64,000 bases of DNA from Escherichia coli (GCF_048403405.1 NZ_CP183129.1), one strand, 5' to 3'. Shown: positions 1-18,659, counted from the stretch's first letter. A program made the numbers and translations. Notes: a model not told the origin generated them from the letters alone.

Positions 1-653
1 AGCGGAATGCCGCTTAAGCTGACGTTCATAATGCGCGTACGTTCCAGCTTTTTCACTTCGTAACCAAAGTGCTCGCACATGCGCCGGATCTGACGGTTCA
101 GCCCCTGCACCAGGGTAATGCGGAAGACAAACGGCGCTTCTTTTTTGACTTTGCACTTTTTCGTCACCGTCCCGAGGATCGGCACCCCCGCCCCCATACC
201 ACGAATAAATTCATCGGTAATCGGTTTATCGACCGTCACCAGATACTCTTTCTCATGATCGTTACCCGCACGGAGGATCTTATTCACCAGATCGCCGTGA
301 TTGGTGAGGAAAATCAGCCCCTGGGAGTCTTTATCCAGGCGGCCAATCGGGAACACGCGTTTGCTGTGGTTAACGAAATCGACAATGTTATCGCGCTCGC
401 CATCTTCGGTGGTGCTGACAATACCGACGGGCTTGTTCAGGGCGATAAGTACCAAATCTTCGGCTTCCCGAGGCTCAATCAACTGACCGTTTACTTTCAC
501 AACGTCGCCGGGTTTCACCTGATCGCCAATGGTGGCTCGCTTGCCATTAAGGAACACATTGCCTTGCTCGATATAGCGATCCGCTTCGCGGCGTGAGCAA
601 ATTCCGCTTTCGCTGATGTATTTATTTAAACGGACTGATGAGTCGGGCAGCAT
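1..653 (-). CDS. rluF: 23S rRNA pseudouridine synthase RluF; N-terminal part only, 3' end lies before window start
   Basis: Minus-strand translation from ATG at 651-653 gives [45 protein letters not shown]... (S4 domain then pseudouridine synthase core). Track ORF 69-596(+) is its antisense artefact. Confidence 0.85.
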
Positions 654-970
654 AAATTCTCCTGTAAAACGCGGAATATACCGTACCTCTTAGCGGGGAA
701 AAACAGGGTTATGCGGCAACGTCGAAATTAAATGTGATCTGCCACGCCTTTTATCACAAAAGTGTCTCCGGAAGTACGATGCAAATTTGCCTGGCAAAAT
801 AAGGATAATCAACATATTACGAATCGCTGCACACCTGTGCTGATGACTACTACGCAGAGAAACAAATGTGCAAGAGAAAGCGCTATTTCTCCCCATGCAA
901 AGAGTGAAAAATCGCTTTGAAAGGCCATCATGATGGGGTTATATCAGATCAAGCGGTGAGAAAGCGTATT

Positions 971-984
971 TGCACAAATGTGCA
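971..984. promoter_or_regulatory. Perfect 14-bp palindrome TGCACAAATGTGCA just upstream of the sorC start; candidate operator
   Basis: Palindrome read directly; ends 16 bp before the sorC ATG at 1001, with the AGGAGG RBS between them. Confidence 0.3.
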
Positions 985-1000
985 GAACCAGGAGGCGGCA

Positions 1001-1948
1001 ATGGAAAACAGTGACGATATCCGTTTGATTGTGAAGATTGCCCAACTCTATTACGAACAGGATATGACGCAGGCGCAAATCGCGCGCGAACTGGGTATTT
1101 ACCGCACCACCATCAGCCGCTTGCTTAAACGAGGCCGCGATCAGGGAATTGTCACCATCGCCATCAACTATGACTACAACGAAAATCTCTGGCTGGAGCA
1201 GCAACTGAAGCAAAAGTTTGGCCTGAAAGACGTTGTGGTGGTGTCGGGAAATGATGAGGATGAAGAGACTCAACTGGCGATGATGGGGTTACACGGCGCG
1301 CAACTGCTGGATCGCTTGCTGGAGCCTGGCGATATTGTCGGTTTTTCCTGGGGTCGCGCGGTGAGCGCACTGGTTGAAAACTTGCCGCAGGCGGGGCAAT
1401 CGCGGCAGTTAATCTGCGTACCAATTATTGGCGGACCGTCCGGTAAACTCGAAAGCCGCTATCACGTAAACACATTAACCTACAGCGCGGCAGCGAAGCT
1501 GAAAGGGGAATCGCATCTCGCAGATTTTCCGGCTCTGCTGGATAACCCCTTAATTCGTAATGGGATCATGCAGTCTCAGCACTTTAAAACCATCTCTGCC
1601 TACTGGGATAATCTGGATGTCGCCCTGGTGGGAATTGGCTCACCGGCCATTCGCGACGGCGCTAACTGGCATGCGTTTTATGGTGGTGAAGAGAGTGACG
1701 ACCTGAATGCCCGCCAGGTTGCTGGCGATATTTGCTCGCGCTTTTTTGATATTCACGGCGCAATGGTTGAAACGAATATGAGCGAAAAAACACTCTCTAT
1801 CGAAATGAATAAATTAAAGCAGGCGCGGTATTCCATTGGCATTGCCATGAGTGAAGAAAAATACAGCGGAATTGTTGGTGCACTGCGTGGAAAATATATT
1901 AATTGTCTGGTAACGAATAGCAGCACAGCTGAACTATTACTGAAATAA
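1001..1948 (+). CDS. sorC: SorC-family transcriptional regulator of the sorbose operon
   Basis: Track ORF 917-1948; likely true start is internal ATG at 1001 (MENSDDIRLIVKIAQLYYEQDMTQAQIARELGIYRTTISRLLKRGRDQGIV) preceded by AGGAGG. HTH N-terminus plus sugar-binding domain; first gene of a sorCDFBAME-like cluster. Confidence 0.8.
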   Translation: MENSDDIRLIVKIAQLYYEQDMTQAQIARELGIYRTTISRLLKRGRDQGIVTIAINYDYNENLWLEQQLKQKFGLKDVVVVSGNDEDEETQLAMMGLHGAQLLDRLLEPGDIVGFSWGRAVSALVENLPQAGQSRQLICVPIIGGPSGKLESRYHVNTLTYSAAAKLKGESHLADFPALLDNPLIRNGIMQSQHFKTISAYWDNLDVALVGIGSPAIRDGANWHAFYGGEESDDLNARQVAGDICSRFFDIHGAMVETNMSEKTLSIEMNKLKQARYSIGIAMSEEKYSGIVGALRGKYINCLVTNSSTAELLLK

Positions 1949-2017
1949 AAATCTTCCCGATGTTTACCGTAATAAAAATTACGGCGGGTCCCTATTATCT
2001 AAAATCAGGAGTCTGTT

Positions 2018-2824
2018 ATGCAAACGTGGTTAAATTTGCAGGATAAAATCATTATCGTCACCGGCGGCGCATCCGGTATTGGTCTGGCGATTGTAGAGGA
2101 ATTATTAGCACAAGGCGCAAACGTACAGATGGTAGATATTCACGGTGGCGATGGTCAATATGAAGGTCATAAAGGCTATCAGTTTTGGCCGACCGATATT
2201 TCCAGCGCCAAAGAGGTAAATCATACGGTAGCGGAAATTATCCAGCGTTTTGGTCGCATCGACGGTCTGGCCAATAACGCCGGGGTCAATTTCCCGCGTC
2301 TGCTGGTCGATGAGAAAGCGCCTGCCGGGCAGTATGAACTCAACGAAGCTGCATTCGAAAAAATGGTCAATATCAACCAGAAAGGCGTTTTTCTGATGTC
2401 GCAGGCGGTGGCGCGACAGATGGTCAAACAACATGATGGCGTGATTGTGAATGTTTCCTCAGAAAGTGGGCTGGAAGGCTCAGAAGGCCAAAGCTGTTAC
2501 GCCGCGACCAAAGCCGCGCTCAATAGCTTCACGCGCTCCTGGTCGAAAGAGCTGGGTAAGCACGGTATCCGTGTGGTCGGTATCGCGCCAGGGATTCTGG
2601 AAAAAACAGGACTGCGCACGCCGGAATATGAAGAAGCGCTGGCGTGGACGCGCAATATCACCGTCGAGCAGCTGCGTGAAGGCTATACCAAAAATTCCAT
2701 TCCTATTGGGCGCGCCGGAAGATTAGCAGAAGTGGCTGATTTTGTTTGTTATCTGCTGTCTGAACGCGCCAGCTATATCACCGGAGTAACCACTAACATT
2801 GCAGGCGGCAAAACGCGCGGCTAA
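2018..2824 (+). CDS. sorD: Short-chain dehydrogenase/reductase, sorbitol-6-phosphate dehydrogenase-like
   Basis: 268 aa with N-terminal TGGASGIGLA Rossmann motif and a downstream catalytic Y-x3-K motif (YAATK); RBS AGGAG upstream; position in operon. Confidence 0.8.
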   Translation: MQTWLNLQDKIIIVTGGASGIGLAIVEELLAQGANVQMVDIHGGDGQYEGHKGYQFWPTDISSAKEVNHTVAEIIQRFGRIDGLANNAGVNFPRLLVDEKAPAGQYELNEAAFEKMVNINQKGVFLMSQAVARQMVKQHDGVIVNVSSESGLEGSEGQSCYAATKAALNSFTRSWSKELGKHGIRVVGIAPGILEKTGLRTPEYEEALAWTRNITVEQLREGYTKNSIPIGRAGRLAEVADFVCYLLSERASYITGVTTNIAGGKTRG

Positions 2825-2833
2825 GGAGGCTTT

Positions 2834-3241
2834 ATGGTCAATGCCATTTTTTGCGCCCACGGCAAATTAGCCTGCGCCATGCTGGAATCGGTTCAGATGG
2901 TGTACGGCGATGCCAGGGTCGAGGCAGTTGAATTTGTGCCCGGCGAGAACGCCGGAGACATTGTGGCAAAGCTGGAGAAGTTAGTGAGCATTCACAATCA
3001 TGGCGAGTGGCTAATTGCCGTGGATTTACAGTGCGGTAGCCCGTGGAATGCAGCAGCGACGCTTGCGATGCGCAATCCGCACCTGCGGGTGATCAGCGGC
3101 CTTTCCCTGCCACTGGCGCTCGAACTGGTTGATAACCAGGACAGCATGAATGTTGATGAACTGTGTGAACACCTGACGCAAATCGCAAAGCAAACCTGCG
3201 TTGTCTGGAAACAACTGGCAACAGCGGAGGAGGATTTCTGA
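2834..3241 (+). CDS. sorF: PTS mannose/sorbose-family EIIA component
   Basis: 135 aa, MVNAIFCAHGKLA...; EIIA-Man fold signature with conserved His; RBS AAGGAGG. Confidence 0.8.
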   Translation: MVNAIFCAHGKLACAMLESVQMVYGDARVEAVEFVPGENAGDIVAKLEKLVSIHNHGEWLIAVDLQCGSPWNAAATLAMRNPHLRVISGLSLPLALELVDNQDSMNVDELCEHLTQIAKQTCVVWKQLATAEEDF

Positions 3242-3735
3242 TGAACATTACGCTCGCCCGCATTGATGACCGCCTGATCCACGGTCAGGTCACTACCGTC
3301 TGGTCGAAAGTGGCTAACGCCCAGCGCATTATTATCTGCAATGACGAAGTTTATAACGATGAAGTTCGCCGGACATTATTGCGTCAGGCTGCGCCACCGG
3401 GAATGAAGGTTAACGTGGTCAATATTGAAAAAGCCGTCGCGGTTTATCACAACCCGCAATATCAGGACGAAACCGTTTTTTATCTTTTCACTCGCCCACA
3501 GGATGCCTTAGCGATGGTTCGCCAGGGGGTAAAAATAGACACCCTGAATATTGGCGGCATGGCCTGGCGGCCCGGTAAAAAACAGTTAACCAAAGCGGTT
3601 TCATTAGATGATGATGATATTAACGCATTTTATGAGTTAAATAATCTTGGCGTCATACTGGATTTACGCGTCGTAGCGTCAGATCCCTCAATCAATATTA
3701 TCGACAAAATAAACGAACAGTTAATCGCAAATTAA
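3241..3735 (+). CDS. sorB: PTS mannose/sorbose-family EIIB component
   Basis: 164 aa, MNITLARIDDRLIHGQV... (EIIB-Man motif with phosphorylatable His); start overlaps sorF stop (TGATG). Confidence 0.8.
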   Translation: MNITLARIDDRLIHGQVTTVWSKVANAQRIIICNDEVYNDEVRRTLLRQAAPPGMKVNVVNIEKAVAVYHNPQYQDETVFYLFTRPQDALAMVRQGVKIDTLNIGGMAWRPGKKQLTKAVSLDDDDINAFYELNNLGVILDLRVVASDPSINIIDKINEQLIAN

Positions 3736-3800
3736 ATAATAGCGCCTGTGTACATATGCTTTAACAGGCAGGGATGACGACACTTAAAAGGTGACAAATC

Positions 3801-4598
3801 ATGGAAATAAGTACCCTACAAATCATTGCTATATTTCTTTTTTCCTGTATTGCCGGAATGGGCAGCGTGCTGGATGAATTTCAGACTCATCGCCCGTTAA
3901 TTGCCTGTACGGTGATTGGTTTAATTCTCGGTGATTTAAAAACCGGAATAATACTCGGTGGTACGCTGGAATTGATAGCTCTCGGCTGGATGAACGTCGG
4001 CGCGGCGCAATCTCCAGATTCTGCACTCGCCAGCATAATCTCCGCCATTCTGGTTATCGTTGGTCAGCAAAGCATCGCCACCGGAATCGCCATCGCGTTG
4101 CCTGTGGCTGCGGCAGGCCAGGTGCTGACGGTGTTTGCCCGTACCATCACAGTAGTGTTCCAGCACGCGGCGGATAAAGCAGCAGAAGAGGCGCGGTTTC
4201 GCACTCTCGATATTCTGCATGTCTCCGCGCTTGGCGTGCAGGCGCTGCGCGTTGCTATTCCGGCACTGATTGTCTCGCTGTTCGTCAGCGCCGATATGGT
4301 CAGCAATATGTTAAACGCCATTCCCGAATTTGTGACCCGAGGACTACAGATTGCTGGCGGTTTTATCGTGGTGGTCGGTTACGCCATGGTGCTACGTATG
4401 ATGGGCGTGAAATATTTGATGCCTTTCTTTTTCCTCGGTTTCCTCGCAGGTGGCTACCTCGATCTCAGTCTGCTGGCGTTCGGTGGCGTCGGCGTGATCA
4501 TGGCCCTGCTCTACATCCAGCTAAATCCACAGTGGCGTAAAGCTGAACCTCAACTCCAGGCCACCGCCTCCACCGCCCTTGACCAACTTGACGATTAA
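3801..4598 (+). CDS. sorA: PTS mannose/sorbose-family EIIC membrane component
   Basis: 265 aa hydrophobic multi-pass protein, ManY-like. Confidence 0.8.
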   Translation: MEISTLQIIAIFLFSCIAGMGSVLDEFQTHRPLIACTVIGLILGDLKTGIILGGTLELIALGWMNVGAAQSPDSALASIISAILVIVGQQSIATGIAIALPVAAAGQVLTVFARTITVVFQHAADKAAEEARFRTLDILHVSALGVQALRVAIPALIVSLFVSADMVSNMLNAIPEFVTRGLQIAGGFIVVVGYAMVLRMMGVKYLMPFFFLGFLAGGYLDLSLLAFGGVGVIMALLYIQLNPQWRKAEPQLQATASTALDQLDD

Positions 4599-4608
4599 CG
4601 GAGCCATC

Positions 4609-5433
4609 ATGGAACAGAGAAAAATTACACGCAGCGATCTGGTGAGCATGTTTCTGCGCTCCAACCTGCAACAGGCGTCCTTTAACTTTGAACGTATTCA
4701 CGGGCTGGGTTTTTGCTACGACATGATCCCCGCCATCAAGCGACTTTACCCATTAAAAGAGGATCAGGTTGCGGCGCTCAGGCGACACCTGGTGTTCTTC
4801 AATACCACGCCAGCCGTATGTGGCCCGGTCATCGGCGTCACTGCCGCCATGGAAGAGGCGCGGGCCAACGGCGCGGAAATTGATGACGGTACCATTAACG
4901 GCATCAAAGTCGGTCTGATGGGACCATTGGCAGGAGTTGGCGATCCACTGGTCTGGGGAACGCTGCGCCCGATTACCGCCGCGCTCGGCGCATCTCTGGC
5001 ACTTTCGGGCAACATTCTCGGCCCGCTGCTGTTTTTCTTTATTTTCAATGCGGTGCGTCTGGCGATGAAGTGGTATGGCCTACAGCTCGGCTTTCGCAAA
5101 GGGGTGAATATCGTCAGCGATATGGGCGGGAATGTGCTGCAAAAACTCACCGAAGGCGCGTCGATTCTCGGACTGTTTGTGATGGGCGTGCTGGTGACCA
5201 AATGGACGTCAATCAACGTACCGTTGGTGGTTTCACAAACGCATGCCGCCGATGGCTCCACCGTCACCATGACCGTGCAGAACATTCTCGACCAACTTTG
5301 CCCTGGTTTGCTGGCGCTCGGTCTGACGCTACTGATGGTTCGTCTGCTCAACAAAAAAATTAACCCGGTATGGCTGATTTTCGCCCTGTTTGGCTTAGGG
5401 ATTATCGGCAATGCGCTGGGCTTCCTGTCCTGA
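4609..5433 (+). CDS. sorM: PTS mannose/sorbose-family EIID membrane component
   Basis: Track ORF 4579-5433; start taken at ATG 4609 (MEQRKITRSDLVSMFLRSNLQQASFNFERIHGLGF, ManZ-like N-terminus) with GGAG RBS. Confidence 0.75.
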   Translation: MEQRKITRSDLVSMFLRSNLQQASFNFERIHGLGFCYDMIPAIKRLYPLKEDQVAALRRHLVFFNTTPAVCGPVIGVTAAMEEARANGAEIDDGTINGIKVGLMGPLAGVGDPLVWGTLRPITAALGASLALSGNILGPLLFFFIFNAVRLAMKWYGLQLGFRKGVNIVSDMGGNVLQKLTEGASILGLFVMGVLVTKWTSINVPLVVSQTHAADGSTVTMTVQNILDQLCPGLLALGLTLLMVRLLNKKINPVWLIFALFGLGIIGNALGFLS

Positions 5434-5484
5434 TTCTTCGCCCCGGCACGACTGCCGGGGCCATCGCTCAACATGAGGTGGTTT

Positions 5485-6714
5485 ATGAAAACAACAGCTC
5501 TGCGTCTTTATGGTAAACGTGATTTACGCCTGGAAACCTTTGATCTTCCTGAAATGCAGGAGGATGAAATCCTCGCGACGGTGGTCACCGACAGCCTGTG
5601 CCTCTCTTCCTGGAAAGAGGCCAATCTGGGTGAAAATCATAAAAAAGTACCCGACGATGTGGCGACCAACCCCATCATCATCGGCCACGAGTTTTGCGGC
5701 GATATTCTGGCCGTGGGTAAAAAGTGGCAGCACAAATTCCAGCCGGGTCAGCGTTATGTGATTCAGGCCAACCTGCAACTCCCCGACCGCCCGGACTGCC
5801 CCGGCTACTCCTTCCCGTGGGTAGGCGGCGAAGCGACGCATGTGGTTATTCCCAACGAGGTCATGGAACAAGATTGCCTGCTGGCATACGACGGCGAAAC
5901 CTATTTTGAAGGCTCGCTGGTTGAACCGCTTTCCTGCGTGATTGGCGCGTTCAACGCCAACTATCATCTTCAGGAAGGTAGTTATAACCACACGATGGGG
6001 ATTCGCCCGCAAGGGCGCACGCTGATCCTCGGCGGCACCGGACCAATGGGACTGTTGGCGATTGATTATGCGTTGCATGGACCGGTTAACCCGTCGCTGC
6101 TCGTCATTACCGATACCGACAACGACAAATTGAGTTATGCGCGCAAGCACTATCCATCAGAACCGCAAACACTGATTCATTATCTCAATGCCGCCGATGC
6201 AGCATTTGATACGTTAATGGCACTGAGTGGCGGTCACGGCTTCGATGATATTTTCGTCTTTGTGCCTAATGAAGGACTGGTGACTCTCGCCTCTTCCTTG
6301 CTGGCGACAGATGGTTGCCTGAATTTCTTCGCCGGACCGCAGGATAAACATTTCAGCGCGCCAATTAATTTCTACGATGTGCATTATGCATTTACCCACT
6401 ACGTGGGCACGTCAGGCGGCAATACCGATGACATGCGCGCAGCAGTCAAATTGATTGAAGAGAAAAAAGTGCAGGCCGCAAAAGTGGTAACACATATTCT
6501 TGGGCTGAATGCCGCGGGCGAAACCACGCTTGAATTGCCTGCCGTCGGCGGCGGCAAAAAGCTGGTGTATACCGGGAAATACCTGCCGCTTATGTCACTC
6601 ACGCAGATTCAGGATCAAGCACTGGCGGCAATTCTGGCGCGTCATCAGGGGATCTGGTCCGGTGAGGCGGAGCAATATCTGCTCACTCATGCAGAGGCAA
6701 TTTCCCATGATTAA
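5485..6714 (+). CDS. sorE: Zinc-dependent alcohol dehydrogenase-family enzyme, sorbose-1-phosphate reductase-like
   Basis: Track ORF 5473-6714; start taken at ATG 5485 (MKTTALRLYGKRDLRLE) after GAGGTGG RBS. MDR/zinc-ADH family, last gene of the sor cluster. Confidence 0.7.
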   Translation: MKTTALRLYGKRDLRLETFDLPEMQEDEILATVVTDSLCLSSWKEANLGENHKKVPDDVATNPIIIGHEFCGDILAVGKKWQHKFQPGQRYVIQANLQLPDRPDCPGYSFPWVGGEATHVVIPNEVMEQDCLLAYDGETYFEGSLVEPLSCVIGAFNANYHLQEGSYNHTMGIRPQGRTLILGGTGPMGLLAIDYALHGPVNPSLLVITDTDNDKLSYARKHYPSEPQTLIHYLNAADAAFDTLMALSGGHGFDDIFVFVPNEGLVTLASSLLATDGCLNFFAGPQDKHFSAPINFYDVHYAFTHYVGTSGGNTDDMRAAVKLIEEKKVQAAKVVTHILGLNAAGETTLELPAVGGGKKLVYTGKYLPLMSLTQIQDQALAAILARHQGIWSGEAEQYLLTHAEAISHD

Positions 6715-6872
6715 TCGCGCTACTTAACTCTGCATGTCGCTGGCTGGTCGCCGCGGCAACTTCGCGACCGGATGTGCGGCTGATTGCTGAAGCAGCACAA
6801 TTTGCATGAGAAGGATAAAAAATATCAGCGCCTTAAGGGGCGCTCAAATTGGTGGCAAAGTACACATTGTTT

Positions 6873-6975
6873 ATGCCGGATGCGGAATGAAGCCTTATTC
6901 GGCATACATAATCTCGAAAATTCAATATATTGCAGTTATCTGGTAGGACTGGTAAGCGTAGCGCATCAGGCAATG
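6873..6975. repeat. REP/BIME-like palindromic units between sorE and pepE
   Basis: Two REP-like units, GCCGGATGCGGAATGAAGCCTTATTCGGCATAC and GGTAAGCGTAGCGCATCAGGCAATG, in the intergenic region. Confidence 0.5.
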
Positions 6976-7095
6976 CTGTGTTTGTCATCAGTCTCAGCGC
7001 CCGGTGCAATACGTGACATCGTGAGCCATGTCAGTAAGTGGTTAAATTCGCAGTGGTAGCATGCCTCCCGTGATTTCTTACTAACCGGAGAAGTA

Positions 7096-7785
7096 ATGGA
7101 ACTGCTTTTATTGAGTAACTCGACGCTGCCGGGTAAAGCCTGGCTGGAACATGCACTGCCGCTAATTGCTGAACAGTTGCAGGGTCGCCGTTCAGCGGTG
7201 TTTATCCCTTTCGCTGGCGTAACGCAGACCTGGGATGATTACACAGCGAAAACGGCTGCGGTTCTCGCTCCGCTGGGTGTTTCTGTCACCGGTATTCATA
7301 GCGTTGTCGATCCCGTTGCCGCGATTGAAAATGCTGAGATCGTGATTGTCGGCGGCGGTAATACTTTCCAGTTGCTGAAACAGTGCCGCGAGCGCGGGCT
7401 GCTGGCACCAATTACTGACGTGGTGAAACGTGGCGCGCTGTATATTGGCTGGAGCGCAGGCGCTAACCTTGCTTGCCCAACCATTCGTACCACCAACGAT
7501 ATGCCGATTGTCGATCCGCAAGGTTTCGATGCGCTAAATCTGTTCCCGCTGCAAATCAACCCGCACTTCACCAACGCGCTGCCGGAAGGTCATAAAGGTG
7601 AAACCCGTGAACAGCGTATTCGCGAACTGCTGGTCGTCGCGCCAGAACTCACAATTATTGGTCTGCCGGAAGGTAACTGGATCACAGTGAGTAAAGGTCA
7701 CGCAACGCTGGGTGGCCCGAACACCACTTATGTGTTTAAGGCTGGTGAAGAAGCGGTTCCGCTGGAAGCGGGTCACCGTTTTTAA
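7096..7785 (+). CDS. pepE: Peptidase E (alpha-aspartyl dipeptidase)
   Basis: 229 aa, [41 protein letters not shown]...; S51 peptidase family. Confidence 0.9.
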
Positions 7786-7792
7786 GTGAATT

Positions 7793-7860
7793 GCCGGATG
7801 CATGATCCGGCATCTTGTACATAGTGCCTGATGCGACGCTTTACATGTCTTATCAGGCCT
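7793..7860. repeat. REP element between pepE and yjbB
   Basis: Canonical REP motif TGCCTGATGCGACGCT...TCTTATCAGGCC plus short palindrome GCCGGATGCATGATCCGGC. Confidence 0.55.
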
Positions 7861-7874
7861 TCAGGGTCACGGTA

Positions 7875-9506
7875 TTAATACTCGTCCCGTCCTTCATCTT
7901 CATCCGGCTGTTCCAGCACACTGTAAGCCACCGAACAAAACAGCGAGTTCAGACGCTGCATATCTCCCAGTAAGCCTAAATGTAGCGAACTGGTTTCAAT
8001 ACTCTGCACGTTTTGCTGGTGCAGGCGATCGACGTGGGCGTGAGAATAGCGGCGATTAAGAATGCGAAAACGATGTTTGCTGCGGCGCAAACGACGGGCG
8101 CTGGTAACATCGCCAGAGAAGAAAACCGACATTGCCAGTTTTAAATTACTGAGCAATTGCTCATAGAGCGCATCCAGTTCCTTCAAGCCATCAAGCGAAA
8201 ATGCTCGCCTTGCAGCCAGCGATTTGTCGGCAATTTCGCTGCCCATGCGCTCGACGATATCGGAGGCCTGCTCAAGGTTAAGCGACATTTCGATGATCTC
8301 CGCCCAGCGACGCGACTCTTCCTCCGCCAGCTCTTCTTTTGGCATTCGCGCCAGATACAGCTTAATGGCGGTGTAGAGAACGTTGATATCATCTGCCAGC
8401 TTACGCAGCTCTTTCTCCTGCCGTGGCTCGCCGTGCATCACTTTATTCAACCCTTCCATCATCTGTTCCATGGCGTCGCCAATGCGCAGGGTTTCGCGCG
8501 CGGCGTTCGCCAGAGCAAGCGTGGGCGTATCCAGCGCGCTGACATCCAGATGTTTAGGCCGTAGCTGGGTATCCAGTTCCGGTTCATCGCGAATAATCGT
8601 TTTGCAAAACCGTGCCATCGGGTCAACAAATGGCAGCATGACCAGGCAACGTACAAGGTTGTAGAAGACATGGAAATAGATCACCAGTTCCGCTTTTGGC
8701 AATGACAACTTCCCCATTGTCTCTGCCAGCAAATGGACAAACGGCAGGATAATCAGGCTACCCACCAGCTTAAACAGCAGACTACCCAGCGCGACACGGC
8801 GGGCTGCGGCATTGGCGGCACTGTTGTTGAGCATCGCCAGCAGGCCGGAACCGAGGTTAGCACCAATCACCAGACAGAGCGCCACGGGGAAGGAGATAAT
8901 GCCTGCAGCGGTCAGAGTCGCGGTCAGCAGTACAGCAGCAAGGCTGGAGTAGCTGATAATGGCGAACATCGCGCCAATCAGCGCATCCAGCAGAATGTCA
9001 CCCGTCAGCGAGGCAAAGATCACCTGAACGCCGTTTGCCTGGGTGATCGGCGTTACGGCCTGCACAATCAACTCCAGCGCCAGCAAAATCAACCCAAGAC
9101 CAATACCGACGCGGCCCAGTTGCCCGGCGCGTGACTGTTTGCGTCCGAGGAAAAAAATCACGCCGATAAAAATAAGTAATGGTGACAGCCAGGATAAATC
9201 GAAGGTGAGAATACGCGCCATTAGCGCCGTCCCGACATCTGCACCCAGCACAATCACCAGAGCCGGTGCGAGGGCTACCAGATCCTGAGCGACGAACGAG
9301 GTCACCAGCATGGTGGTGGCATTACTGCTCTGTACCAGTGCGGTAACGCCGATCCCCGCGCAAAAGGCGAGCGGCTTTTTTTCGACGCTCCGGCTAAGGA
9401 CAGTACGCAAACGCGCGCCGAAGACGCGCATTACGCCGGTTCGAACAATATGCGTCCCCCAGACCAGCAGGGCGACGGCAGAAAGCAGGTGAAGCAGCGT
9501 TAACAC
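7875..9506 (-). CDS. yjbB: Na+/phosphate symporter-family inner membrane protein
   Basis: 543 aa; hydrophobic N-terminal half (PNaS-type) and PhoU-like C-terminal half. Confidence 0.85.
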   Translation of the reverse strand: MLTLLHLLSAVALLVWGTHIVRTGVMRVFGARLRTVLSRSVEKKPLAFCAGIGVTALVQSSNATTMLVTSFVAQDLVALAPALVIVLGADVGTALMARILTFDLSWLSPLLIFIGVIFFLGRKQSRAGQLGRVGIGLGLILLALELIVQAVTPITQANGVQVIFASLTGDILLDALIGAMFAIISYSSLAAVLLTATLTAAGIISFPVALCLVIGANLGSGLLAMLNNSAANAAARRVALGSLLFKLVGSLIILPFVHLLAETMGKLSLPKAELVIYFHVFYNLVRCLVMLPFVDPMARFCKTIIRDEPELDTQLRPKHLDVSALDTPTLALANAARETLRIGDAMEQMMEGLNKVMHGEPRQEKELRKLADDINVLYTAIKLYLARMPKEELAEEESRRWAEIIEMSLNLEQASDIVERMGSEIADKSLAARRAFSLDGLKELDALYEQLLSNLKLAMSVFFSGDVTSARRLRRSKHRFRILNRRYSHAHVDRLHQQNVQSIETSSLHLGLLGDMQRLNSLFCSVAYSVLEQPDEDEGRDEY

Positions 9507-9680
9507 GAGTTCAGGTTCTCCTTATCGTTATATGTTCCTGAAGCAATTGAATGACCAAAGGACCGGAAACACGCTGACTGGCATCTTTACTGTGCCTTTT
9601 GACCTTCGTTTTTCCGGCTAAGATTATTCCAGCCTGATTCCAGTATAAGTGTTTCATATTAATAAAGAGACAGGGCACTC

Positions 9681-9725: not shown

Positions 9726-12700
9726 TCAGTCCGCGTCATACCCCAGATTCGGTGCCAGCCAGCGCTCAACATCTGAGACGCTCATACCTTTACGGCGGGC
9801 ATAGTCTTCAACCTGATCGCGCTGGATTTGCGCCACCGCGTAATACTTGCTGTCCGGGTGGCTGAAGTACCAACCCGAAACCGATGCACCAGGCCACATG
9901 GCGAAAGATTCTGTGAGTTTCATGCCAGTGTGTTTTTCCACTTCCAGCAGCTCCCAGATGGTGGCTTTTTCCGTATGTTCCGGGCAGGCCGGATAGCCCG
10001 GTGCCGGACGGATGCCCTGGTAGTTTTCGCGGATCAGTTCTTCGTTGCTGAGGTTCTCGTTCGGCGCATAGCCCCAGTAGACTTTACGCACACGCTCATG
10101 GAGATACTCCGCAAAGGCTTCGGCTAAACGGTCGGCAAGCGCTTTCACCATGATTTTGTTGTAATCATCGTGCTGCGCTTCAAAGGCATCAGCCAGTGCG
10201 TCCTCTTCCAGCCCGCCAGTCACGGCAAATGCGCCGATGTAATCTGCTTTACCAGAAAGCTTCGGCGCAACGAAGTCAGCGAGACAGTAGTTAGCGAAGC
10301 CGGTTTTTTCGGTCTGTTGACGCAGATGGTGGCTGACGTTGATCACATGGGTGCGCGTTTCGTCACGGTAGATTTCAATGTCATCGCCCACACGGTTTGC
10401 CGGGAACAGCCCCACCACGCCACGCGGATTCAGCGTTTTTTCGGCGCTTAATTTATCCAGCATGTCATTGGCGTCTTTAAACAGACGCTGCGCCTCAACG
10501 CCCACCACTTCATCTTCCAGAATGCGCGGATACTTCCCGGCCAGCGACCAGGTCATAAAGAACGGTGTCCAGTCGATGTAATTACGCAGCGTTTCGATGC
10601 TGGCTTCGACTTCCTGCACGCCGAGACGGTGCGCCACCGGCGGCGTGTAAGCCTGCCAGTCAAAAGCGAAGTCGTTATCACGCGCCGCTTCCAGCGTGAC
10701 CGGTGGTGTGCGTGGTTTCTTGCGCCCGTGCTGAATACGCACGGTTTCGTACTCCTTGCGGGTACGAGCAACGAAATCATCGCGCTGAGTGTCGGAAAGC
10801 AGCGCCGCCACCACACCAACGGTGCGCGAAGCGTTCTGCACATACACCGTCGGGCCGCTGTAGTTTTGCTCGATCTTCACCGCCGTGTGTGCTTTAGAGG
10901 TGGTCGCGCCGCCAATCAGTAACGGAATGGTGAAGCCCTGACGCTCCATCTCTTTCGCCACGTTAACCATCTCGTCCAGCGACGGCGTGATAAGCCCCGA
11001 AAGTCCAATCAGATCAGCATTCACTTCTTTAGCGGTACGGAGAATTTTTTCCGCAGGCACCATAACGCCGAGATCGACAATTTCGTAGTTGTTACATTGC
11101 AGCACCACACCAACGATATTTTTACCGATGTCGTGGACGTCGCCCTTCACGGTGGCGATCACCATCTTGCCGTTGGTTTTGCCCTGCTCTTTGCTGGCTT
11201 CAATAAACGGTTCGAGGTAGGCCACCGCCTGCTTCATCACACGCGCCGATTTGACCACCTGTGGCAGGAACATTTTCCCTTCGCCAAACAGATCGCCGAC
11301 CACGTTCATGCCGTCCATTAGCGGGCCTTCAATCACCTGAATAGGGCGCTCCGCCTGCAGGCGGGCTTCTTCGGTGTCCTGCTCGATAAACTCGGTAATG
11401 CCTTTGACCAGCGAGTATTCCAGACGTTTATTCACTTCCCACGAGCGCCACTCCGCCTGCTGGGCGTTAGCGGTGTCGTCGGTTTTGCTGCCGCGATATT
11501 TCTCGGCAAGCTCCAGTAAACGCTCAGTGCCATCGTCGCGACGGTTAAGAATCACATCTTCCACCGCGTCGCGCAGTTCAGCGGGTAGGTCGTCGTAAAT
11601 CGCCAGCTGCCCGGCGTTGACGATCCCCATATCCATGCCATTGCGAATAGCGTAGTAGAGGAACACCGCGTGAATGGCTTCGCGCACCGGATCGTTGCCA
11701 CGGAATGAGAAAGAAACGTTAGATACGCCGCCGGAGATCAGCGCGTGCGGCAGTTCGCGTTTGATGTCTTCACACGCGCCGATAAAATCCTGTGCGTAGT
11801 TGTTGTGCTCTTCAATGCCAGTTGCGACCGCGAAGATGTTCGGGTCGAAGATGATATCTTCTGGCGGGAAGCCAACTTCTTCGGTGAGGATTTTGTACGC
11901 CCGACGGCAAATCTCGATTTTCCGTGCGCGGGTATCGGCCTGCCCCTGTTCGTCAAAGGCCATTACCACAACTGCCGCACCGTAACGACGCAACAATTTC
12001 GCGTGATGGATAAAAGCGTCGACGCCTTCTTTCATTGAAATAGAGTTAACAATGCCTTTGCCCTGGATACACTTCAGACCTTTTTCAATGACATCCCATT
12101 TTGAGGAGTCGATCATAATCGGCACGCGAGCGATATCCGGTTCACCGGCAATCAGATTGAGAAAACGCACCATCGCCGCTTCGGCGTCGAGCATCCCTTC
12201 ATCCATATTGATATCGATAATCTGCGCGCCGTTTTCCACCTGCTGGCGGGCCACATCCAGTGCCTCGCTGTATTTCTCTTCTTTGATCAGGCGCTTGAAC
12301 TTAGCGGAACCGGTGACGTTGGTGCGTTCACCCACGTTCACAAACAGGCTATCTTCGCCAATGTTCAGCGGCTCCAGGCCGGACAAACGGCAGGCTACGG
12401 GGATTTCCGGCAGTTTGCGCGGCGCTAATCCTTCTACTGCACGACTCATCGCGGCAATATGTTGTGGCGTGGTGCCACAGCAGCCGCCGACGATATTGAG
12501 AAAGCCCGCTTGCGCCCATTCACGTATTTGTTTTGCCATCGTGTCGGCGTCGAGATCGTACTCACCAAAGGCGTTGGGTAGCCCGGCGTTCGGGTGCGCG
12601 GTGACGTAGCATTCCGCAATCCGTGATAATTCCTGCACGTACTGGCGCAGTTCGTCTGGCCCCAGCGCACAGTTAAGGCCGAAAGTCAGCGCTTCGGCGT

Positions 12701-13409
12701 GGCGCAGAGAGTTATAAAACGCTTCGGTGGTCTGCCCGGAGAGCGTGCGCCCGGAGGCGTCGGTGATGGTGCCGGAGATCATAATCGGCAGCTCAACGCC
12801 CAGCGCTTCAAACTCCGTTTTCACCGCAAAGACCGCCGCTTTGGCGTTAAGGGTGTCGAAAACGGTTTCAATCAGGATCAGATCCGCACCACCTTCCACC
12901 AGCGCTTTGGTGGATTCGCGATAGGCCGCCACCAGCTGGTCAAAAGTGATGTTGCGGAATGCCGGATCGTTGACGTCCGGAGAAATAGACGCCGTGCGGT
13001 TGGTCGGGCCGAGAACACCGGCAACGTAGCGCGGTTTCTCCGGCGTGCGGGCAGTCCACTCGTCAGCACAAGCGCGCGCCAGTTTGGCGGCAGCGAAGTT
13101 GATTTCCGCCGATAGGGATTCCATCTGGTAATCCGCCATCGCAATGGTCGTGGAGTTGAAGGTGTTGGTTTCGATGATATCCGCGCCCGCTTCAAAGTAG
13201 GCGTTATGGATAGCGGCGATCACTGCCGGTTTACTGAGTACCAGCAGGTCGTTGTTGCCTTTGAGGTCGCATGGCCAGTCGGCAAAGAGTTCACCACGAA
13301 AATCGGCTTCATTCAGTCGATAGCTCTGGATCATGGTGCCCATACCGCCGTCCAGCACCAGAATACGTTCATTTAACTGCGCACGCAGTTGTTCCACTTT
13401 GCTGCTCAC
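9726..13409 (-). CDS. metH: Cobalamin-dependent methionine synthase
   Basis: 1227 aa from GTG start at 13409 ([28 protein letters not shown]...); track ORF is extended upstream to an in-frame ATG. Hcy-binding, pterin-binding, B12 and AdoMet domains recognisable. Confidence 0.95.
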
Positions 13410-13608: not shown

Positions 13609-14433
13609 ATGGTCGCACCCATTCCCGCGAAACGCGGCAGAAAACCCGCCGTTGCCACCGCACCAGCGACTGGACAGGTTCAGTCTTTAACGCGTGGCCT
13701 GAAATTACTGGAGTGGATTGCCGAATCCAATGGCAGTGTGGCACTCACGGAGCTGGCGCAACAAGCCGGGTTACCCAATTCCACGACCCACCGCCTGCTA
13801 ACCACGATGCAACAGCAGGGTTTCGTGCGTCAGGTTGGCGAACTGGGACACTGGGCAATCGGCGCACACGCCTTTATGGTCGGTAGCAGCTTTCTCCAGA
13901 GCCGTAATTTGTTAGCAATTGTTCACCCTATCCTGCGCAATCTAATGGAAGAGTCTGGCGAAACGGTCAATATGGCGGTGCTTGATCAAAGCGATCACGA
14001 AGCGATTATTATCGACCAGGTACAGTGTACGCATCTGATGCGAATGTCCGCGCCTATCGGCGGTAAATTGCCGATGCACGCTTCCGGTGCGGGTAAAGCC
14101 TTTTTAGCCCAACTGAGCGAAGAACAGGTGACGAAGCTGCTGCACCGCAAAGGGTTACATGCCTATACCCACGCGACGCTGGTGTCTCCTGTGCATTTAA
14201 AAGAAGATCTCGCCCAAACGCGCAAACGGGGTTATTCATTTGACGATGAGGAACATGCGCTGGGGCTACGTTGCCTTGCAGCGTGTATTTTCGATGAGCA
14301 CCGTGAACCGTTTGCCGCAATTTCTATTTCCGGACCGATTTCACGTATTACCGATGACCGCGTGACCGAGTTTGGCGCGATGGTGATTAAAGCGGCGAAG
14401 GAAGTGACGCTGGCGTACGGTGGAATGCGCTGA
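13609..14433 (+). CDS. iclR: IclR repressor of the glyoxylate shunt operon
   Basis: 274 aa from ATG 13609 (MVAPIPAKRGRKPAVATAPATGQVQSLTRGLKLLEW...); track ORF has a 13-codon upstream extension. Confidence 0.95.
   Translation: MVAPIPAKRGRKPAVATAPATGQVQSLTRGLKLLEWIAESNGSVALTELAQQAGLPNSTTHRLLTTMQQQGFVRQVGELGHWAIGAHAFMVGSSFLQSRNLLAIVHPILRNLMEESGETVNMAVLDQSDHEAIIIDQVQCTHLMRMSAPIGGKLPMHASGAGKAFLAQLSEEQVTKLLHRKGLHAYTHATLVSPVHLKEDLAQTRKRGYSFDDEEHALGLRCLAACIFDEHREPFAAISISGPISRITDDRVTEFGAMVIKAAKEVTLAYGGMR

Positions 14434-14749: not shown

Positions 14750-18659
<3,910 letters not shown>

Follow-up and report, generated by a model that had tools for sequence, protein, structure and literature searches.

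What is a seven-gene sugar block doing between two core genes of Escherichia coli that are only 211 bp apart in a K-12 derivative, and was it brought into this site or lost from K-12? We addressed this question for positions 654-7095 of a 64,000-nucleotide stretch of E. coli DNA, hereafter the window, where the genes lie between rluF and pepE. We are highly confident that the block is the known chromosomal sorCDFBAME operon for the use of L-sorbose, with its seven genes intact; most likely it is ancestral at this site, and the K-12 state would be a secondary deletion. In sequence, the window matches E. coli strain 4621 (chromosome NZ_CP103479.1), a blood isolate from Houston, at 100% identity, and the Prokaryotic Genome Annotation Pipeline (PGAP) annotation of that strain lists the same seven genes, with the last one named sorE.

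Identity of the seven genes

Positions 654-7095 span exactly the gap from the start codon of rluF (minus strand, ending at 653) to the pepE ATG at 7096. Seven intact plus-strand open reading frames (ORFs; 1001-6714) fill this gap, separated in order from sorC to sorE by spacers of 69 and 9 nt, a 1-nt overlap, and spacers of 65, 10 and 51 nt. A sequence-only reading of the window had described seven co-directional, tightly packed genes between rluF and pepE, encoding a SorC regulator, a short-chain dehydrogenase/reductase (SDR), the enzyme II components EIIA to EIID of a mannose-family phosphotransferase system (PTS) and a zinc-dependent alcohol dehydrogenase (ADH)-type reductase; the ORFs, their coordinates, the annotation and the domain assignments all agree with it. 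The block and its flanks are composed as follows, with model scores in bits.

1-653, minus strand: 5′ part of rluF, 23S rRNA pseudouridine synthase, left core flank, divergent from sorC (PGAP, NZ_CP103479.1)
654-1000, plus strand: rluF-sorC regulatory region, holding the left K-12 breakpoint (688/689)
1001-1948, plus strand: sorC, SorC-family regulator, 315 aa, with an N-terminal helix-turn-helix and a sugar-binding domain
2018-2824, plus strand: sorD, SDR-type D-glucitol(sorbitol)-6-phosphate dehydrogenase, 268 aa (NF004817, sorbitol-6-phosphate dehydrogenase, 497.6; cut-off 304)
2834-3241, plus strand: sorF, mannose-family PTS EIIA, 135 aa (TIGR00824, 144.8; cut-off 98)
3241-3735, plus strand: sorB, PTS EIIB-Sor, 164 aa (TIGR00854, 223, above cut-off)
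3801-4598, plus strand: sorA, PTS EIIC-Sor membrane subunit, 265 aa (TIGR00822, 424; cut-off 340; Pfam PF03609)
4609-5433, plus strand: sorM, PTS EIID membrane subunit, 274 aa (TIGR00828, 472; cut-off 293; Pfam PF03613)
5485-6714, plus strand: sorE, L-sorbose-1-phosphate reductase by its PGAP name, divergent zinc-ADH/medium-chain dehydrogenase/reductase fold, 409 aa
7006-7095, plus strand: pepE upstream region common to K-12 (blastn with J53), beginning at the right breakpoint (7005/7006)
7096-7785, plus strand: pepE, dipeptidase E, right core flank (annotation; NF003642 at 357 bits)

The regulator and the EIIB subunit point to sorbose. SorC matched PF04198 at 270 bits and aligned over 315 of 315 residues with PDB 2w48 ('sorbitol operon regulator'; E=1.9e-183, 87% identity), and SorB matched PDB 1nrz ('sorbose-specific IIB component') at 87% identity with E=2e-90, the value for the mannose IIB being E=2e-49. 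Both 2w48 and 1nrz are Klebsiella pneumoniae proteins. The SDR motifs TGGASGIG, NNAG and YAATK are intact in SorD, His9 is present in SorF, and the RIDDRLIHGQ motif of SorB (His14) is intact. In SorE, the ADH_N and ADH_zinc_N domains are accompanied by Cys39, GHE at 67-69 and GTGPMG at 184-189 (GxGxxG), and the protein is 85-86% identical to its syntenic orthologues in Klebsiella spp., an orthology that supports its assignment as a predicted L-sorbose-1-phosphate reductase. A sorE knock-out of an ST131 (sequence type 131) strain did not grow on sorbose (PMC12817954).

With sorbose-specific best matches and the same gene order, the block is the known sor operon rather than a new system, as the sequence-only reading had proposed, and no different PTS family was found behind it. 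That reading had also named the K. pneumoniae proteins for comparison. SorC and SorB are 87% identical to 2w48 and 1nrz, and the remaining proteins were 76-96% identical to their counterparts in other Klebsiella spp. The least conserved member of the operon is sorF, with 93.4% nucleotide identity to the ST131 strain EC958 versus 96-98% for the other sor genes; at the protein level, SorF is 73-79% identical to its Klebsiella and Raoultella counterparts, against 83-96% for the other Sor proteins. Four sorF clusters have been reported (PMC12817954).

The locus in other genomes and the K-12 allele

A species scan with SorE, taking one genome per species, yielded 80 loci in which the Sor and flanking proteins were located by tblastn. 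K. pneumoniae is not among them; apart from the two PDB sequences, the Klebsiella comparison draws on K. grimontii, K. michiganensis, K. oxytoca, K. spallanzanii and K. indica. The seven-gene order (regulator, SDR, EIIA, EIIB, EIIC, EIID, reductase) was found at more than 30 enterobacterial loci, and the order rluF-sor-pepE/yjbB recurs in about 25 species, which belong to eight or more enterobacterial genera. The arrangement of yjbD and the divergent rluF, sorCDFBAME, then pepE and/or yjbB occurs in E. whittamii, another Escherichia sp. and E. albertii (contig-limited), as well as in three Pseudocitrobacter, at least seven Citrobacter, five Klebsiella and four Raoultella, in several genomes named Enterobacter, and in Cedecea. 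The words 'island' and 'acquisition' of the sequence-only reading are therefore misleading, since the operon stands between rluF and pepE/yjbB in so many genera.

Compared with Klebsiella spp., the identity is 87-88% for SorC, 89-91% for SorD, 76-78% for SorF, 87-88% for SorB, 95% for SorA, 95-96% for SorM and 85-86% for SorE, and 93-94, ~90 and 90% for the flanking RluF, PepE and YjbB, respectively; the divergence of the Sor proteins is within the range of the flanks. At the nucleotide level, rluF, pepE and yjbB are 97-98% identical to EC958, alongside the sor values given above. The block has a G+C content of 51.2%, and its surroundings have 50.7-52.2%. As had been remarked from the sequence, the block is free of mobility genes: it contains no transposase, integrase or insertion sequence (IS) ORF, and there is no tRNA at the site. 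A repeat search of 600-7200 gave short chance-level matches only, with no direct or inverted repeats flanking the block, and an insertion signature was rejected because no repeat brackets it. Given the occupation of the same site in many genera, the flank-like divergence, the host-like G+C content and the lack of mobility genes and repeats, the operon is most likely ancestral between rluF and pepE, and the K-12 state would have arisen by secondary deletion.

The block is absent from the K-12 derivative J53, where only 211 bp lie between rluF and pepE. In blastn, homology between the J53 locus and the window ends on the left at 688 (junction 688/689) and resumes at 7006 (junction 7005/7006), so that 6,317 bp of the window (689-7005) correspond to 86 unrelated bp in K-12. 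This filler (2189-2274 of the K-12-type empty site, L002) is present in 2,557 of the 5,426 complete E. coli genomes, always as a single copy and at this site only, and the sor operon occupies the site in 2,865 (53%). The loss in sor-negative strains is a single allele, as almost all of the 2,557 carriers have the filler in identical form and in one copy. K-12 and about half of E. coli would thus have lost the operon through one deletion-replacement, in which 689-7005 gave way to the 86-bp filler.

Beyond pepE follow yjbB (7875-9506, minus strand), metH (9726-13409) and iclR (13609-14433). The classical genetic map (1982-1992 literature) is reported to have placed E. coli sor near metH/iclR, and the gene order seen here agrees with that position. 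Between iclR and aceK, at 14750-16954, the PGAP annotation of the identical record has a gene for the type III secretion effector EspL4, which looks accessory amid core genes.

Two further observations concern the operon in other genomes. In one sor+ pig isolate (NZ_CP075462.1, 4355380-4365657), the 9.5-kb query matches in two pieces over 10,278 bp, an excess of ~778 bp whose size fits an IS1 insertion plus target duplication somewhere in the region. The SorE loci also include Enterococcus crotali and E. ureilyticus (L032, L034) and Gilliamella (L036-L046), the latter with sorFBAME followed by sorC. These Enterococcus and Gilliamella clusters suggest an old inter-phylum transfer with replacement or fast change of the regulator and IIA.

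The 3′ end of the operon and the eighth gene

The sequence-only reading had overlooked a remnant of an eighth gene, sdhL, directly after sorE. Three features make up this end of the block.

6707-6818, plus strand: sdhL remnant, 112 nt (alignment and blastn against E. whittamii L003)
6827-6844, unstranded: G+C-rich hairpin AGCGCC-TTAAGG-GGCGCT, just past the old sdhL stop
6875-6972, unstranded: inverted pair of repetitive extragenic palindromic (REP)-like units, resembling a bacterial interspersed mosaic element (units 6875-6907, degenerate, and 6943-6972, minus strand)

In E. whittamii (L003), sdhL is an intact ORF of 270 aa (11223-12035) that begins 8 nt before the sorE stop (ATGATTAA); its product scores 462 bits with NF009202 (shikimate 5-dehydrogenase) and matches PDB 1npy (Haemophilus influenzae HI0607, 'shikimate 5-dehydrogenase-like protein') over its full length with E=6e-113. 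By tblastn, a full-length sdhL is found directly 3′ of sorE in 29 enterobacterial loci, and in most relatives the gene shares the overlap with the sorE stop. The window retains the first 58 nt of the gene (6707-6764), with the ATG at 6707 overlapping the sorE stop by 8 nt and a CAA>TAA nonsense change at 6725-6727, and its last 55 nt (6764-6818), with the former stop codon at 6816-6818; the 700 bp in between (L003 11281-11980) are missing, and the deletion junction is at 6764. An 81-nt probe over this junction is present in 2,688 of the 5,426 complete E. coli genomes and full-length sdhL in 177, and the two numbers together give 2,865, that is, all sor+ genomes. The gene was probably the last member of the ancestral operon, translationally coupled to sorE, and in this strain and most sor+ E. 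coli one old 700-bp deletion has left only the stump.

This bears on the published view of the gene. In PMC12817954, sdhL was noted in ST648 only, was sorbose-induced and was placed upstream of the sor operon, and the flanking-region survey of that study cited ST648 to illustrate ST-specific insertions. The alignments point instead to a gene that lies downstream of sorE, is probably ancestral and was lost elsewhere, rather than to an insertion specific to ST648. Its product does not seem to be needed for cells to grow on L-sorbose. The CFT073 genes c4981-c4987, cloned in DH5alpha, conferred growth on L-sorbose (PMC2831201), and the primers of that study match the window at ~655-682 and ~6716-6745; sdhL is dispensable in this respect, as the growth-conferring fragment stops inside the stump.

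What SdhL does where it is intact is a more tentative matter; no physiological substrate is known for this orphan enzyme class. It is possible, if rather doubtful, that sdhL, as the last gene of the probably ancestral eight-gene operon, is sorbose-induced wherever it is intact, and that SdhL acts in sorbose-linked ketose or polyol metabolism, not in shikimate synthesis, with 5-keto-D-fructose or a phosphorylated intermediate as conceivable substrates. The conserved coupling of sdhL to sor offers a concrete lead to the function of the class, and it is the sole lead of this analysis with some novelty.

Downstream of the stump, the hairpin at 6827-6844, the sole one after the operon, was called terminator-like solely on the minus strand, which carries the T run; it probably marks the end of the operon transcript, a role that it would have to play on the plus strand. 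Of the two REP-like units, the one at 6943-6972 (minus strand) has two mismatches to a Z-type REP consensus. The other, at 6875-6907, is degenerate and fails searches allowing three mismatches, and the same position in E. whittamii matches the consensus exactly; a Y-type consensus had no match at three or fewer mismatches. The sequence-only reading had reported REP units at the right junction, and this probably holds, because both REP-like units lie inside the segment that K-12 lacks, just inside the junction.

The spacing downstream of the operon varies. E. coli FDAARGOS_497 (L086), a strain of the ST648 type with full-length sdhL, has 122 bp between sdhL and pepE, where the window has ~280 bp between the stump and pepE; with so short a spacing, this strain is probably devoid of the REP pair. 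Among species, the distance from sor/sdhL to pepE ranges from ~0.1 kb to more than 8 kb (L009, L011, L012, L021, L031, L045), which makes the downstream junction look like a preferred place for additional cargo. An Rfam scan of 1-9600 gave nothing within the operon, and its sole match was a sub-threshold, REP-derived naRNA4 after pepE (7792-7859, between pepE and yjbB; 38.4 bits, gathering score 59.5), probably another REP element.

Regulation, function and comparison with known systems

The rluF-sorC intergenic region was aligned across 20 loci/species, and several blocks stand out. An invariant or near-invariant block at 730-765 contains AAATGTGATCT, which is CRP-like in one half, and a second conserved block, GGGGTTATATCAGATCA, lies at 935-951. 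The palindrome TGCACA-N2-TGTGCA occurs as an exact copy, TGCACAAATGTGCA, at 971-984 and as a copy with one mismatch at 828-841, which are the sole matches with at most one mismatch in the whole window. A putative promoter could be formed by the -35 element TTGAAA (917-922) and the -10 element TATATC (940-945), and the exact palindrome sits between this plausible -10 and the Shine-Dalgarno sequence AGGAGG (990-995). Both palindromes are reasonable candidates for SorC operators. A 68-aa minus-strand ORF at 690-896 was taken as probably spurious, because the alignment of this region between genera is patchy, its blocks being broken by indels.

A polymorphism of this region was observed in other genera: an element of ~125 bp lies just upstream of the rluF start codon in part of the loci of Citrobacter, Klebsiella, Raoultella and Enterobacter and is absent from others and from Escherichia, in the manner of a small insertion polymorphism resembling a miniature inverted-repeat transposable element (loci L007, L009, L023, L021, L030, L035, L018, L020).

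The pathway chemistry and the dual role of SorC are established for the sor systems of Klebsiella and E. coli and are taken here from the literature (PMC2831201, PMC12817954). L-sorbose would be imported and phosphorylated to L-sorbose-1-phosphate by the four-subunit mannose-family PTS. The phosphoryl group would pass from phosphoenolpyruvate through enzyme I, HPr, SorF (EIIA, His9) and SorB (EIIB, His14) to the sugar, which would receive it while passing through the SorA/SorM (EIIC/EIID) membrane complex. SorE would then reduce L-sorbose-1-phosphate to D-glucitol-6-phosphate, which SorD would oxidise to D-fructose-6-phosphate for glycolysis. SorC, the product of the first gene, is expected to act as a repressor when L-sorbose is absent and as an activator when it is present, and probably binds the conserved palindromes upstream of its own gene.

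Published work on the same operon supports this scheme. The seven sor genes were present in more than 86% of the genomes of each phylogroup, except for A (9.6%) and B1 (12.1%), sorbose induction was shown, and sorAM and sorE knock-outs in ST131 together with a knock-in in ST10 confirmed the function (mSystems 2025, PMC12817954). In that study a sor+ ST131 strain grew on L-sorbose and induced the operon. The operon is very probably functional in the strain analysed here as well.

It could nonetheless be argued that the operon is present but cryptic in this strain, for instance through regulatory decay accompanying the loss of sdhL, and the pseudogene stump downstream would agree with this. We find it very unlikely, given that all seven ORFs are full length with their motifs intact and that the regulatory region shares 99.4% identity with its counterpart in EC958, in line with growth and induction in a sor+ ST131 strain (PMC12817954); sdhL itself is dispensable, as the functional CFT073 fragment in DH5alpha stopped within the stump. 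That the genes encode a mannose-family PTS for some other substrate (mannose, fructoselysine/glucoselysine, N-acetylgalactosamine/galactosamine or D-glucosaminate), mislabelled as sorbose, is hardly conceivable. The PTS models that were passed are indeed those of a generic mannose/fructose/sorbose subfamily, but the Aga/Gam (N-acetylgalactosamine/galactosamine) equivalogs scored far below their cut-offs, and the closest solved structures, at 87% identity, are a sorbose IIB chain and the Sor regulator. Likewise, the accessory enzymes are a sorbitol-6-phosphate dehydrogenase and SorE, not deglycases, deacetylases or isomerases, and the CFT073 orthologue gives growth on L-sorbose (PMC2831201).

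A horizontally acquired island that entered the rluF-pepE gap of an ancestral E. coli, with the K-12 empty site as the original state, would account for the presence of the operon in only 53% of complete E. coli genomes and for its published frequency of ~10-12% in phylogroups A and B1 (PMC12817954). We disfavour it as improbable, however, because the same site is occupied across the ~25 species and at least eight genera with divergence that matches the flanks, no IS, integrase, tRNA or direct repeat accompanies the block, and its G+C content is host-like. Nor is the empty site a clean target, as unrelated filler of 86 bp occupies it and conserved sequence upstream of rluF is missing. Three points weigh against our preferred reading, that of an intact resident sor operon deleted in K-12. 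The filler had no match by blastn-short in any of the more than 80 fetched loci, and its Smith-Waterman score against 689-7005 of the window was 23 (shuffles: mean 21, maximum 29); having no traceable origin, it makes of the K-12 allele a replacement rather than a clean deletion. SorE passed no curated NCBIfam model, the best being IolM with 52 bits against a cut-off of 450, and its identity thus rests on orthology and the PGAP name. Finally, no canonical promoter came up ahead of sorC in a generic sigma-70 scan, for which reason the promoter, CRP and operator roles given above are inferences, and in a promoter/terminator scan of 600-7200 the counts matched the shuffle expectation.

The intact resident operon preferred here is a classic, experimentally verified and variably present metabolic module of E. 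coli, and as such already known; it already serves as a lineage marker and was recently tied to the fitness of high-risk clones. The refinements useful for annotation and evolution are that sor-negative strains are most likely derived and share one allele (2,557 of 5,426 genomes), and that the 'ST648-specific' sdhL is probably the ancestral eighth gene, whose loss left one scar common to 2,688 genomes.

Among known systems, the sorCDFBAME operon of K. pneumoniae was reportedly described by Sprenger and Lengeler in 1984 and by Woehrl et al. in 1990. The Klebsiella operon agrees in its seven genes and in how they are ordered and oriented, with proteins other than SorC and SorB 76-96% identical in Klebsiella spp. 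and SorF the least conserved (76-78%), and in K. grimontii, K. michiganensis and K. oxytoca it has the same neighbourhood, with rluF upstream and pepE/yjbB downstream. Klebsiella spp. retain an intact sdhL 3′ of sorE, whereas the window has a stump. The sor operons of CFT073 (c4981-c4987) and of ST131 and ST648 are the same element at the same locus, with allelic differences only, except that E. coli of the ST648 type (177 of 5,426 genomes) retain full-length sdhL, unlike the window. The SdhL class (HI0607, 1npy) is matched by the intact eighth gene of the relatives, of which the window keeps a 112-nt pseudogene remnant. Finally, the E. coli mannose PTS manXYZ is of the same family: its IIC and IID are membrane subunits, its IIA and IIB are phosphorylated on His, and SorB matches the IIB domain of ManX with E=2e-49. 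But ManX fuses IIA and IIB, which are encoded by separate genes in the sor operon, and manXYZ is devoid of a linked dehydrogenase/reductase pair and of a SorC regulator.

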